Shown: piece after piece, positions 6,001 to 12,000 of the stretch
How the letters are laid out: the number at the start of each line of letters is the position of its first letter
Numbering within the stretch: the stretch's first letter is position 1
Virus record (IMG/VR): IMGVR_UViG_2526164604_000026
Coordinates: 1-19,040 of that record
DNA length: 19,040 nucleotides
Source: a virus
Taxonomy: Duplodnaviria > Heunggongvirae > Uroviricota > Caudoviricetes
Reading direction: 5' to 3' (one strand)
Position numbers: made by a program

Positions 6001-9000
6001 AAGAGCCTCTTCACATGTGGTGGCAGCTCGCCTTGGAATTAGTCGTGAAGAGGCTGTCAACGAACTGTGGAAACTGAAACGCCGTGGAGAAGCGGATAAC
6101 AAGGGGGCGATATGGTGGCTGACTCAGGCTGGTGAAAGTGAACCGGTGTCACCGGTACCGAAAGTGACGGCGCAAATGCTGACAGAGGCGATTGAACAAC
6201 ATGGCCCACAAACGGCGGATGAACTGGCATTGATGTTCGGAATTACCTCCCGCCGGGCGAATTCATCGCTGGCAATGGCAATCAGCAAAGGGTGTCTGAT
6301 TCGCGTGAATCAGGATGGTAAATTTCGTTACTGCATACCGGGCGTTGATTTACCGGCAGAGCCGAAAGCAGCATCCGTAGCTGAAACGGAGGGTAAAGCC
6401 CTTCCTCAGCCAGCTGGTGTTGCGTTACCAGTCCAGGAAACGGCTGCACAGGAAGAAATTAAAACAGAAGCGGTGGAGGACATTGTGAAGTTGCAGCAAT
6501 CGTTCACTGAAGCGAAAGCAGATGACCTGATTCTACCATCGCTGCATGTGGCTAACCGCGAGCTGCGCCGGGCGAAAAGTAATGTTCAGAAGTGGGAGCG
6601 AGTCTGTGCTGCGCTACGGGAACTGAACAAACACAGGGATATTCTCCGGGATATTACCGCCACCAGAGAGCAGCAGCGGTGAGTGGCTGGAAGAAGTGGC
6701 GCTGGGCTGAAATCCTGATACTCCGGCAGTGTGCGGGAACGATGAGAGTCGAAAGCATCGGTTATCTGATTGGCCGTAGTGAGTCAGCCGTCAGGACGAA
6801 AGCGCGGGAACTGGGTATCAGCATGATGTTACGGGGTGATTATCACCAGTCAGCCAAATGTTCACAGCGTGATATTGAGCTGGCGTGGCAACTGCATCAG
6901 CGTGGTGTACCCCGACGGGAAATTGCCGAAAAGTTTGGGATGAAGTTGGGCGCAGTGAATAACTACGTTTATTTCGACAGGAGGGTTCAGGAGTGAGGGT
7001 GAGGGTTTATATCGCCGGTCCGATGACGGGATATGAAAATTTTAACCGCGAGGCATTTCACAAAACGGAAGAGGTGCTGAAACGGGAAGGGCATACCGTT
7101 TTAAACCCGGCAGTACTTCCGGACGGGCTGACTCAGCCACACTACATGGATATTTGCATGGCAATGCTCCGTTGCGTGGATGCGGTTTACATGCTGAAAG
7201 GCTGGCAGCAGTCGGCAGGTGCAGGGGCTGAGCTGGCACTGGAGGAGAAACCGGGCCATGCGGTGATTTTTCAGGAGGTGGGCAGTGAATATTGACCCGG
7301 CGATAACGATTGATATGGCCCTGAACGCCGGCCTGGCACTTCTTGGTTATTTCTACATTATGTTCTGCAGCGGACGATGGCTGTCACTGTTGTTCATGAA
7401 AAAATGGAATAAACGCCGTAAGCAGGAGCAACGCCAGAAGGCAATGGATGCATTTTTCGAAGCCTTCGGAATTGACGGCATGGAACCAGGGGATCCAGCT
7501 CGCGCAATCAGCAGAGGGGGTGTAGTAATCCTTGTATATCGGAGTGAAGAGAAAAATGACGATCACAAAACAACGTGTAGAAGAAATCATATCCCGCATT
7601 GAAATGTATGGACATGGTGCAGGGTATATCGCAGACGAGGTTAATGATCTGGCTATACTGGCGCTGAATTTATCAAATATCGCGAACCTGAAGCGATACG
7701 AGCTTGATATGGGAGGTTGCGACTCGTGCGGTCAGGATTGTGGCGCTGATATGACTGAAGATCCTGATGGTGATTATGTCCTGTTTGATGACGTGGTTAA
7801 GTTGTTTGAATTTGATACAACCACTCAAAAGTTAGAAATCCCGGCAAAGGAGGCAGCCAGTGGGCAAGATTGACTATCAGGCACTGCGTGAGGCAGCACA
7901 AAACTATCAATCGACGCTGGCGTGGTATCAGGCTACCCCGGACAGCCCAAATGCTGAACGGGATTGTGATGCGGCTCTTGCTGCGTTTAAGCGTCACATC
8001 CGTCATCGGGAAGCGGATATTATCGCTGATTTGCTGGATGGACTGGAAGAAGCAAAATCACAACTCAACGAGCAGCGTGAGTATTACGAAGGCGTTATCT
8101 CTGATGGGAGCAAGCGTATTGCTGAACTGGAAGCGCGGGAAGTTCAATTACCGACTCGCTACGACCTTCGATATGGACACCCGATAAATGCAGATGAGCG
8201 ACATGTCATGATACCTAAAGAAAATGGCAGTTGGCTTTACCTGATTGACCTAGAACACGCATTACGCGTCGCTGGCATTCGCATCAAAGGAGAGTGAGAT
8301 GAACGGACAAATATCAATTGTTCGACCAGGAGCATGTGACGATCGCGAAATACGAATGATTATTCGTCTGGCGATGGGGAAAACAATAACTGCTCTCATT
8401 ACTCCAGAAAATCTCGCATTAGCATTAACAGGAAAGTCAGACATGCCAGTAGAGCTAAAGCTGCGAAATGTTGAGATTAAGGTGAAATAGCTATGACCAC
8501 TATTACCAAAGATCGACTGCTGACAATCCAGCATTGGCGCGAAACATACGGACCGGGTAGCAACGTTGTGCTTCCAGCAGAAGAAGCGGAAGAGCTGGCA
8601 CGGATTGCGCTGGCATCACTGGCAGCAGTATCGGATGAACGAGCAGCCTATGAATTATTTATGGAGAAGCGTTTCGGAGAATCTGTAGATCGCCGCAGAG
8701 CAAAAAATGGCGATAGAGATTACATGGTATGGGATATGGCGCTTGGCTGGATTATCTGGTGTCACCGCGCCGCCATGCTTCAGGCTGGAAACTTTCGGGA
8801 AAATAAGGGTTCGTCAACCAATAATTTTCGGGAAATCTCGGAAACGTCAACCAACTATCCGGTAACTCCGGATGGTTGGATAAGCTGTAGTGAGCGAATG
8901 CCGGATGATGGTCAGCACGTAATTATTTTATGTGATGGCGCATTCGTTCTTTATGCGCAATATCGAGACGGTGAGTTTTTTGATGTAGTCCGTAATGGTG

Positions 9001-12000
9001 ATGAATTTTTCGAAACACAGAGCCGCAATGTAACCGACTGGATGCCGCTACCAGAACCGCCGCAGGAGGTGCGCCAATGATCTGGCCTGAAGCCTTTGCA
9101 ATTACAGGCGTTGCTATAGCTATTGATTTTTTAGTATATGTTATTTGTCGGTGGGGGTAAAAACGTTCGCCGGGATTCACACCAAAGGAGGGAATATGTC
9201 GGATGATATTTCACTGGCAATGGAAGGTGCGCTGGCTGTTATTGCTGTTGTGGGCGTTTACTGCCTGGTTGTGTTTTTGATGGATCGACTAGGGAACTGA
9301 ATTCATTACGATATGGGAATTCCCATATCGGGTAAAAACGGTTTGCGGTAAAGCGAGAGTTAAGTAGAATTGCTGCGGGTGCTTGAGGCTGTCTGCCTCG
9401 GGCATGCCACCGTAAGGCAGACAGAGAAAAGCCCCAGTTAACATTACGCGTCCTGCAAGACGCCTAACATTAATCTGAGGCCAATTTCATGCTAGACACA
9501 TGTAGGTTAGCCTCTTACGCGCCGAAAGGCAAGGAGAAGCAGGCTATGAAGCAGCAAAAGGCGATGTTAATCGCCCTGATCGTCATCTGTATCACCGTCA
9601 TAGTGACGGCACTGGTAACGAGGAAAGACCTCTGCGAGGTACGAATCCGAACCGGCCAGACGGAGGTCGCTGTCTTCACAGCTTACGAACCTGAGGAGTA
9701 AGAGACCCGGCGAGGGAGAAATCCCTCGCCACCGCTGATGTGTCAGGCATCCTCAACGCACCCGCACTTAACCCGCTTCGGCGGGTTTTGTTTTTTCTGG
9801 TCGTTCTGGTTTACAATCCATCCGTCAGCCTGAACAACTGGCACCTGCTGCGCCAGCAGAGAAAACAGATGGCGCACGATACCAAATTTTACAATTCGGA
9901 TAACTCTGCCGCCCCTGCCAGCAGGCACGGGCGGCGTTCTCATGCATTCAAATCTGACTGGTATCAGCACGACCCCTGCACCGAGAACAGGCTGAATGGC
10001 TGATTCAGTGTTACCGCAGGCGCGGATACGAGGTTAAGAAAGCCCTCAGTCTCGATTATCGTCACTGGATAATCTCCGTCAGGCTTCCTTACTCCGAACG
10101 CCCACCGCGTCCGTCCCGCACATTCCAGCAACGCATCTGGAGGTAACGTGCGGGTATTACTTCGACCTGTTCTGGTACCGGAACTCGGGCTGGTGATCGT
10201 TAAGCCGGGCCGTGAATCCATGCCGGTATTCCACAATACCCGGGTACTGGTGGAGCCGGAACCGAAAAGCATGCGAAATCTGCCGTCCGGGGTTGTACCT
10301 GCCGTTCACCAGCCGCTGGCGGAAGATAAATCACTACTGCCATTTTTCAGCGATGAGCGGGTGATCCGTGCTGCGGGTGGCGCTGGTGCACTGTCTGACT
10401 GGTTATTACGTCACGTGAAATCCTGCCAGTGGCTACACGGTGATTATCATCACAGCGAAACCGTCATTCACCGTTACGGTACCGGCGCGATGGTGTTGTG
10501 CTGGCACTGCGACAACCAGCTGCGGGAGCAGACATCTGATTCACTGGATCAACTTGCTCAACAGAATCTGGCCGCCTGGATGATTGACATCATCCGTCAC
10601 GCAATGAATGGCGCACAGGAGCGTGAATTATCTCTGGCTGAATTATCCTGGTGGGCGGTCCGCAATCAGGTGGCGGACGCGCTACCGGAAGCGGTATTAC
10701 GTCGTTCGCTGGGGTTGCGTGCGGAAAAAATCCGCTCCGTATACCGTGAAAGCGACATCATACCGGGAGAACAGACCGCCACCAGCATACTGAAGCAGCG
10801 CACAAAAAATATTGCGCTACCGTCTCACACCCACCAGCAACAGAACCCACCACAGGAAAAGACGGTGGTCAGCATTGCCGTTGATCCGGAGTCTCCGGAA
10901 TCCTTCAGGAAACGACCTAAACGTCGCCGCTGGGTAAATGAGAAATACACACGCTGGGTAAAGACACAGCCGTGTGCGTGTTGTGGTAAGCCAGCGGACG
11001 ATCCTCATCATCTGATTGGTCATGGTCAGGGTGGAATGGGAACAAAATCCCACGATATTTTCACGCTACCGCTGTGTCGGGAGCATCACAACGAGCTTCA
11101 TGCGGATCCGCTGGCGTTCGAAGAAAAGCATGGTTCCCAGGTTGATTTAATTTTTCGTTTTCTTGATCACGCCTTTGCGACTGGCGTGCTCGGGTAAAAG
11201 AGGTTACTGATGCGCATAGAGTTGGTTTTACCTTACCCGCCGACGGTGAACACCTACTGGCGACGTCGTGGCAGCACATATTTTGTATCAAAAGCCGGTG
11301 AGCGTTATCGCCGGGCTGTGGCGCTTATTGTTCGCCAGCAGCGGCTGAAATTAAGCCTGTCCGGAAGGCTGGCGATAAAGATTATTGCCGAGCCACCGGA
11401 TAAGCGCCGCCGTGACCTGGACAATATTCTGAAAGCGCCGCTGGATGCGCTGACGCATGCGGGGTTGCTAATGGACGATGAGCAGTTTGATGAAATCAAT
11501 ATCGTTCGTGCTCAGCCAGTATCTGGTGGACGTCTGGGGGTGAAGATTTACCCCATAATGCTTGAAGGGCAGGTCAAAAAATGAAACTGGAAGATTTACC
11601 GAAATACTACTCCCCAAAATCCCCCGGCCTGACTGATGCATCGGCCTCAACGTCGAAAGATACGCTGAGTATCACTGATGTGATGGCCGCGCAGGGCATG
11701 ACACAGAATTGGGCTGAGATGGGGTTTTCTGCGTTCCTTGGGAAAATGGGCATTAGTATGAATGACAGAGAGCGGGCAACAGAATTGCTGACAGAATATG
11801 CACTCAGTCGGTGTGATCGCGTGGCGGCGTTAAGAAAACTCCCGGCAGAAATAAAACCGGCAGTGATGCGTATTATGGCTTCGTATGCGTTTGAAGATTA
11901 TGCCCGTAGCGCGGCGAGCAAAAAACAGTGCCCCTGTTGTCACGGAAAAAAATTTATTGAAAGCGAGGTTTTTACAAACAAGATCCAGTATCCGGATGGT

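Follow-up and report, generated by a model that had tools for sequence, protein, structure and literature searches.

What holds seven small, closely packed genes together in the early region of a lambdoid prophage, a shared function or a shared place on the map? The question is raised by the IMG/VR virus record IMGVR_UViG_2526164604_000026 (Caudoviricetes), of which we analyzed positions 1 to 19,040, referred to below as the window. A sequence-only reading of this DNA had described positions 6679-9080 as a nin-like block of seven serially coupled genes, here called g1 to g7 (Table 1). We consider it probable that the region is a variable accessory-gene slot occupied by independently assorting cassettes, and that this slot belongs to the rightward early operon of an Escherichia coli O157:H7 prophage of the Rac/lambda type that adjoins potC. 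It lies between the replication genes (a DnaT-like O gene, P, and a DUF1627 gene) and a conserved stretch comprising hok/sok, DUF968, RusA, and Q, which is the position of the nin region in lambda. The seven genes would then be cassettes joined at gene boundaries rather than one machine: g1, for a putative tandem helix-turn-helix (HTH) DNA-binding protein; g2, for a DUF4406 protein, the one nearly fixed backbone member, whose fold and motif suggest an N-glycosidase or transferase with Glu80 as nucleophile, as in nucleoside 2-deoxyribosyltransferase (NDT) and DNPH1; g3 and g4, for a DUF4752 protein that may be membrane-anchored and its acidic partner; and an array of g5 (Ea22), g6 (63 aa), g7 (DUF551), and a 27-aa peptide gene that in Shiga toxin (Stx) phages forms part of the exo-xis region of the leftward operon, with Ea22 biasing the outcome toward lysogeny.

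Gene content among related prophages carries this reading. We mapped the proteins of the window onto the best 80 IMG/VR loci with a close relative of the DUF4406 protein (at least 85% identity), of which 71 could be scored upstream and 57 were long enough to be scored downstream. On either side the neighbors recur: the DUF1627 gene lies upstream in 54 of 71 loci, and hokD and DUF968 follow in 46 and 44 of 57, respectively. The genes between them come and go. We found g1 in 28 of 71 loci, a g5-like Ea22 gene in 33 of 57 (directly abutting the DUF4406 gene in 26), g3 in 8, g7 in 7, and g4 and g6 in 3 each, and all seven genes occur together in just two of the 57 scorable loci, plus a third, shorter locus. 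From the DUF4406 gene to hokD, a crude clustering of open reading frames (ORFs) sorts 48 loci into 30 architectures made up of 53 ORF families. Because gene content varies in this way, we read the region as a hypervariable accessory slot with joints at gene boundaries and not as a fixed system. What had been called a block is indeed a run of seven contiguous genes, but its unity was overstated, as the genes assort independently among relatives.

That the seven are genuine genes is supported by several lines of evidence. Positions 6679-9080 are tiled by seven + strand ORFs with zero non-coding space between them, and the calls of the Prokaryotic Genome Annotation Pipeline (PGAP) in identical O157:H7 DNA (strains TR01 and EDL933) are exactly these seven genes, in agreement with the small, tightly packed genes first proposed. 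Every one of the ORFs has a PHROG family match (E <= 1.8e-24), and the ratio of nonsynonymous to synonymous substitution rates (dN/dS) against diverged homologues is approximately 0.1-0.3 for g1, g2, g3, and g6, to which firm values are confined, g4, g5, and g7 having too few gap-free diverged homologues. These matches and ratios argue that the ORFs are not there by chance. Four of the six internal junctions overlap and the other two abut within 2 nt. The claim that almost every start overlaps the preceding stop is therefore close to what we find, although the strict 4-nt overlap is confined to the g1/g2 junction and the two outer ones. With all starts on the same strand, overlapping or a few nucleotides from the preceding stops, and with no strong internal terminator, the arrangement has the sequence features of a coupled operon and is consistent with a single translationally coupled unit. 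Since the starts overlap or abut the stops before them, the seven genes are probably translated in series.

The signals for transcription fit this arrangement. A consensus scan found a sole strong promoter-like site on the + strand upstream of the block, a PR-like candidate that is likely the start of the rightward early transcript. Between 3612 and 9770, the scan detected no + strand promoter-like site and no terminator-like site as strong as the hairpin after hokD (7 pairs, 5 G-C), and for this reason we think that transcription of the block most likely starts at this candidate, which faces the racR-like repressor gene; the block may plausibly share its transcript with the replication genes. 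A weak terminator-like match (5 pairs, 3 G-C) falls inside g3 at 7367-7384, and in an Rfam scan no match to an RNA family fell within the block. Several points weigh against the picture drawn so far. The loci compared for synteny are weighted toward close relatives in E. coli; g1 has no Shine-Dalgarno match, and those of g4 and g7 are weak; the promoter and terminator matches are consensus matches that occur at about background frequency; and operon status and coupling are inferred from sequence.

Table 1. Coordinates of the features discussed, in the window and in the leftward operon of Stx phage BP-4795. Negative junction values are overlaps with the preceding gene.
Feature	Record	Position	Strand	Start	Product	Junction with preceding gene	Shine-Dalgarno	Remarks
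PR-like promoter candidate	window	3583-3612	+					TTGACA-18-TAATAT; consensus scan; between racR-like and ydaS-like genes
DUF1627 gene	window	5966-6682	+					ren position, after replication gene P; Pfam 6.8e-82; PGAP
g1	window	6679-6996	+	GTG	105 aa	-4 nt, GTGA		
g2	window	6993-7295	+	GTG	100 aa	-4 nt, GTGA	AGGAGG, inside upstream gene	DUF4406
g3	window	7285-7602	+	GTG	105 aa	-11 nt	AGGAGGT, inside upstream gene	DUF4752
g4	window	7556-7873	+	ATG	105 aa	-47 nt		phrog_3126
g5	window	7860-8297	+	GTG	145 aa	-14 nt	AGGAGG, inside upstream gene	Ead_Ea22
g6	window	8299-8490	+	ATG	63 aa	+1 nt, TGAgATG	AGGAG, inside upstream gene	phrog_1222
g7	window	8493-9080	+	ATG	195 aa	+2 nt, TAGctATG		C-terminal DUF551
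27-codon ORF	window	9077-9160	+	ATG	27 aa	4-nt overlap with g7 stop, ATGA		MIWPEAFAITGVAIAIDFLVYVICRWG
34-aa hydrophobic peptide gene	window	9196-9300	+		34 aa		AGGAGG, strong	PGAP; Kyte-Doolittle 19-residue maximum 2.72
hok/sok locus	window	9377-9787	+					sok 9377-9551 (Rfam 116.9 bits), hokD 9546-9701, hairpin 9770-9787
Terminator-like hairpin	window	9770-9787	+					after hokD; first strong one; 7 pairs, 5 G-C
Leftward operon, proximal	BP-4795							exo, DUF1317, DUF1382, ZapA-like gene, DksA-like gene
Ea22 gene	BP-4795	5445-6215						
63-aa gene	BP-4795	6217-6408			63 aa			94% identical to g6
DUF551 gene	BP-4795	6411-7001						
27-aa ORF, unannotated	BP-4795	7001-7081			27 aa			
Leftward operon, end	BP-4795							DUF4222, hypothetical ORF, xis, int

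The surrounding DNA places the prophage in O157:H7. Many chromosomes of this serotype, that of EDL933 among them, match a 2.8-kb stretch around the block with 100% identity, and at least 80% of the stretch is present in 287 genomes; over the whole window, the best match reaches 95% coverage at 99% identity, and EDL933 reaches 91% coverage. The prophage is lambdoid and adjoins potC in E. coli O157:H7. Its annotated order runs on the left from int and xis through a truncated exonuclease pseudogene to the racR-like repressor gene, an HTH gene, and a YdaT-family gene; the middle holds the DnaT-like initiator gene, P, DUF1627, and the seven genes; and the right part continues with the 34-aa ORF, hokD, a small ORF, DUF968, RusA, the antitermination protein, and the lysis genes. 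The slot resembles the nin region of lambda in its map position (P/ren to Q), in its small, packed, non-essential genes, and in belonging to a rightward early operon that ends near a Holliday junction resolvase (here RusA) and a late antiterminator. It differs in its Rac-like backbone (racR/ydaS/ydaT immunity and a DnaT-like initiator) and in having hok/sok inside the region. No Nin Pfam family appears among the matches of the seven products (E <= 0.1), and a scan of all products against NCBIfam returned no match. The term nin-like thus holds by position, from the replication genes to RusA and the antiterminator, and fails by homology. Downstream of the block, RusA and the following gene are annotated in TR01 as fused pseudogenes (TR01 locus 14712-16242), whereas RusA and the antiterminator gene are intact in the window (11210-12402) and in EDL933, so the prophage varies among O157 strains in this part.

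The distal genes of the array have counterparts in other phages. The g5 product matches the Pfam family Ead_Ea22 (PF13935; 51.4 bits against a cut-off of 27, 2.2e-13), as had been proposed, and aligns by BLASTP with Ea22 of lambda (41% over 118 aa, E 3e-17) through the N terminus and coiled coil, including the shared stretch LNEQREYYEGVISDGSKRIA. The alignment with lambda Ea22 does not extend beyond approximately residue 108, and no lambda-type C-terminal domain was found; the C-terminal end is shared with Ea22 of BP-4795. A lambda-like N terminus followed by an unrelated C-terminal part fits the Ea22 variants described for Stx phages, whose C-terminal domains are variable and mosaic (PMC10834534). 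The next gene, g6, encodes a basic protein of phrog_1222 (1e-40), a PHROG family without assigned function that follows Ea22 in several phages, and is 94-97% identical to its counterparts at the same position in BP-4795 and PAS61. The DUF551 assignment of g7 is likewise upheld: residues 128-191 match PF04448 along the entire profile (1-68 of 68; 75.9 bits against a cut-off of 22, 4.5e-21), and the protein belongs to phrog_60 (1.8e-51). Sequence searches of g5 and g7 against the PDB gave chance-level matches only. Behind g7 lies the 27-codon ORF, which PGAP does not call in TR01 or EDL933. It is open in approximately 40 related loci and 90 phage records, typically directly after the DUF551 gene, has a dN/dS of 0.16-0.31 at dS > 1, and encodes a hydrophobic peptide (Kyte-Doolittle 19-residue maximum 2.31). 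It appears to be, in effect, an eighth coupled gene for a conserved membrane peptide.

Order and spacing of g5, g6, g7, and the 27-codon ORF are those of the distal exo-xis region in the PL operon of BP-4795 (Table 1). The statement that Ea22 genes usually lie left of the repressor is correct: ea22 of lambda lies between exo and xis, and in BP-4795 and PhiR49_2 the gene is also found between exo or cI and xis. In PhiR49_2, the interval from cI to xis contains homologues of g3 and g4 (84-86% identity), a gene annotated as Ea22, and a short one that matches the N terminus of g7. The best nucleotide matches of 7272-8928 fall on the opposite strand of Stx1a phage records, close to their left end, and the Uetakevirus PAS61 has the 63-aa and DUF551 genes downstream of its replication genes. 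Here, g5 is a + strand gene that follows the replication genes instead of lying between exo and xis, and 33 of 57 loci of the prophage family place their Ea22 gene as this prophage does. By comparative sequence, then, what has been relocated is the distal exo-xis module as a whole, here in a rightward operon, and the rightward placement of Ea22 is the common one in this family. The likeness to the exo-xis region of lambda and Stx phages consists in the Ea22 homologue itself, in collinearity with BP-4795, and in the g3-g4 pair of PhiR49_2; the differences are the rightward operon, the absence of the orf60a/63/61/73 cassette, and the non-lambda C-terminal domain of Ea22. The leftward early region of this prophage is nearly empty, with int, xis, and the truncated 3'-5' exonuclease pseudogene (window approximately 1419-2456; TR01 locus 4920-5321). 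The usual place of the exo-xis genes is missing from the left arm, and it is the rightward operon that carries genes of the exo-xis type.

For two members of this module, work on relatives offers leads. In lambda and in Stx phages, Ea22 is reported to favor lysogeny (PMC7093339, PMC10834534), so the earlier statement that none of the genes has an established role does not extend to this family. The DUF551 protein YfdS of the cryptic prophage CPS-53 is also a small accessory protein encoded in a coupled cluster, yfdQRST. YfdS is linked to H2O2 (hydrogen peroxide) tolerance and, as part of yfdQRST, to an inhibition of DnaA-dependent initiation upon overexpression (PMC4776307). The g7 protein differs from YfdS by an extra, unrelated N-terminal region of approximately 100 aa, and the likeness rests on the shared domain. 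The Ea22 and YfdS phenotypes may therefore be taken, by analogy, as family-level leads for g5 and g7.

The DUF4406 protein encoded by g2 raises the question of an enzymatic activity. Its assignment is firm, with residues 4-92 matching profile positions 2-90 of 91 in PF14359 (115.1 bits against a cut-off of 22, 2e-33), and it belongs to phrog_355 (4e-43). An AlphaFold2 (AF2) model computed from a 30-sequence alignment has a mean predicted local distance difference test score (pLDDT) of 87.8 and a predicted template modeling score (pTM) of 0.82, with four beta-alpha repeats. In a Foldseek search of the PDB, nearly all of the top matches were NDT, DNPH1/Rcl, or MilB (query TM-score (TMq) 0.67-0.77, probability 1.0), and in BFVD the matches were phage proteins labeled deoxyribosyltransferase (TMq up to 0.89). 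We conclude that the confidently modeled g2 protein has a predicted minimal NDT/DNPH1-like fold, and to this extent the NDT-like signature noted earlier is borne out; at the level of sequence, neither PF05014 nor any PDB entry of this group was matched. The similarity to NDT, DNPH1, and MilB may also extend to an N-terminal strand that ends in a tyrosine followed by a Gly-rich loop, and to a helix that opens with an S-x-G-x3-E motif. Among 55 diverse family members, Phe22, Pro43, Tyr51, and Ser74 are present in all, Gly76 and Glu80 in 54 each, and Tyr6 in 49, with Phe in five more.

The family is large and widespread: a search at E <= 1e-3 yields 17,740 cluster representatives, and the family is common in phages of Proteobacteria and Actinobacteria, with members in phages of Vibrio, Arthrobacter, Mycobacterium, Aeromonas, Pseudomonas, and other hosts. 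A literature search found no functional paper on DUF4406. Of 34 longer relatives, one touches PF05014 (at 1.7e-4), and the domain fusions among them involve DUF4406 itself and clan relatives only. Three phage genes annotated as hydrolase or deoxycytidylate deaminase were considered as fusion evidence and set aside, as Pfam finds only DUF4406 in them; neither fusions nor neighboring genes yielded a firm clue to function. Two of these labels, the deoxycytidylate deaminase genes of Arthrobacter phage Abidatro (locus 1480-1866) and Pseudomonas phage LESphi3 (locus 1501-2037), look like mis-annotations because DUF4406 is the only domain detected. A BFVD entry named dATP/dGTP diphosphohydrolase N-terminal domain-containing protein and MazG-like PHROG matches provide a tentative lead toward a role in the nucleotide pool. 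The O157 copy itself has Gly78 where most relatives show Arg, Lys, Thr, or Val, and together with Glu84 and Pro87 this residue could reflect altered specificity or relaxed constraint.

From fold and motif, DUF4406 is probably a small enzyme, either an N-glycosidase or a transferase, with a deoxynucleoside or deoxynucleotide as its substrate. The near-invariance of Ser74, Gly76, and Glu80, the S-x-G-x3-E spacing of the DNPH1 nucleophile motif, the Tyr or Phe at position 6 in 54 of 55 members, and the fact that its nearest folds are all N-glycosidases or transferases favor an enzyme over the chief alternative, a nucleotide binder, sponge, or regulator that reuses an NDT/flavodoxin-like fold. That alternative, which we judge unlikely, draws on the small size of the protein (just 100 aa, with four strands and four helices, about two-thirds the size of NDT, DNPH1, or MilB), the lack of the additional C-terminal segment with which a neighboring subunit completes the active site in NDTs, the poorly conserved Asp equivalent, and the missing PF05014 match. 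The same observations, with some others, count against the enzymatic reading: Asp53, the presumed partner, is found in 24 of 55 members; C-terminal elements found in full-size NDTs are missing from the family; a Pfam scan gave no match to PF05014 (Nuc_deoxyrib_tr); phmmer and the DUF4406 profile against PDB sequences found no NDT or DNPH1, only chance-level matches; and the hhalign alignment with human DNPH1, in which Y6 pairs with Y24 and S74-x-G-x3-E80 with S98-x-G-x3-E104, has weak significance (E 0.025) and serves as a lead. The O157 copy, moreover, has Glu84 and Pro87 (window 7242-7253) where relatives have Ala in 51 of 55 and Leu in 36 of 55, and Pro is outside the six commonest residues at position 87. 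A bolder version of the enzymatic reading, in which DUF4406 would be an uncharacterized class of minimal 100-residue N-glycosidases that edit the nucleotide pool alongside the replication genes (for example, by destroying a deoxynucleoside monophosphate or a nucleotide immune signal), seems to us unlikely.

Two other accounts of the seven genes compete with the accessory slot. If they formed one co-functional system, such as anti-defense or superinfection exclusion, coupling would fix the proportions of its subunits, which would explain the zero intergenic space and serial overlaps as well as the 100% conservation of the whole array in hundreds of O157:H7 genomes. This conservation, however, is attributable to a clonal lineage, and among relatives the components assort independently, with the complete set in the few loci and many architectures described above. 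Parts of the array also occur in other operons of other phages, and none of nine proteins tested had a PADLOC match at E <= 0.01. We therefore hold a single system to be highly improbable. The genes might alternatively be functionless remnants drifting in a defective prophage, in keeping with the truncated exonuclease pseudogene, the near-absence of a leftward early region, and the A84E and L87P changes at two conserved positions of the DUF4406 copy. Yet the seven ORFs and the 27-aa ORF are all intact, and the AF2 model of the exact O157 sequence is confident through residues 81-90, although this bears on the family rather than on this copy; likewise, dN/dS values of 0.1-0.3 against diverged homologues denote purifying selection on the families and not on this copy. 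We consider decay improbable and retain the accessory slot as the preferred reading.

The first gene of the array, g1, probably encodes a tandem-HTH DNA-binding protein. The product is basic (isoelectric point (pI) 10.0) and belongs to phrog_323, annotated as transcriptional regulator (1.8e-24), and its relatives, which go by the name DNA-binding protein, have precomputed matches to HTH_23 and Sigma70_r4_2. The AF2 model (pLDDT 79) consists of two three-helix bundles, for which Foldseek returned weak matches (best E 0.012), the top ones being the bipartite HTH domains of Cbp1, Tc3 transposase, Mor, and Pax5. The earlier designation as an HTH gene rests on this model together with Pfam matches to HTH families that stay below their cut-offs (Sigma70_r4_2 at 20.1 bits against 25.7), and a sequence search against the PDB gave chance-level matches only. 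Residues 7-20 (W7-G20) are invariant in relatives. The downstream ATG at 6742 (M22) was on that ground ruled out as the start, which we place at the GTG overlapping the DUF1627 stop.

The g3 product, previously listed as a membrane protein, is a clear DUF4752 protein (PF15944; 132.1 bits against a cut-off of 27, 7.5e-39). A hydrophobic N-terminal segment (residues approximately 11-29) followed by a K/R-rich stretch makes an N-terminal membrane anchor probable, the Kyte-Doolittle 19-residue maximum of 1.54 being borderline. A literature search found no functional paper on DUF4752. Its neighbor g4 encodes an acidic protein (pI 4.1) that matches phrog_3126, a PHROG family without assigned function, across its full length (2.5e-66). 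The two genes overlap by 47 nt (7556-7602) in different frames, an overlap also annotated in phage PhiR49_2. The DUF4752 domain ends at residue 90, where g4 starts, and the last 15 codons of g3 are thus a non-domain tail. Programmed frameshifting at the overlap (GAG AAA AAT GAC) was considered and rejected: an X XXY YYZ heptamer is lacking from the g3 frame, and g4 brings an ATG of its own together with a full-length PHROG match.

At its right end the slot is bounded by a hok/sok type I toxin-antitoxin locus that, judging from its sequence, is complete and forms a conserved border. Beside it lies the gene for the 34-aa hydrophobic peptide, which 9 of the 57 loci also have at approximately 350 nt before hokD. 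Farther downstream, Rfam matches the STnc100 small RNA family at 13174-13340 (+; 101.6 bits), between the antiterminator gene and a gene for a 645-aa SASA-family esterase.

Taken together, the cassettes of the slot would be expected to contribute early modulation of the host and of the choice between lysis and lysogeny, along with nucleotide handling, and to supply no essential phage function. Genes, families, and arrangement were all known before, with RefSeq entries for all seven and the array present in EDL933 and hundreds of other O157:H7 genomes. The architecture is an ordinary one, a familiar mosaic of lambdoid accessory regions, and matters little for genome biology. Within it, a conserved gene for a 27-codon membrane peptide is missing from standard annotation. 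The exo-xis type module (Ea22, 63 aa, DUF551, 27 aa) appears to move as a unit between leftward and rightward early operons, so that studies of exo-xis genes and of the induction of Stx prophages should not take its location as fixed. The only part with upside is the biochemical function of DUF4406, a huge family of enzyme-like phage proteins that has gone unstudied and for which the hypothesis is simple and testable. If the bolder version of the enzymatic reading is true, DUF4406 would be a new phage enzyme of nucleotide metabolism or counter-defense and not a salvage transferase.

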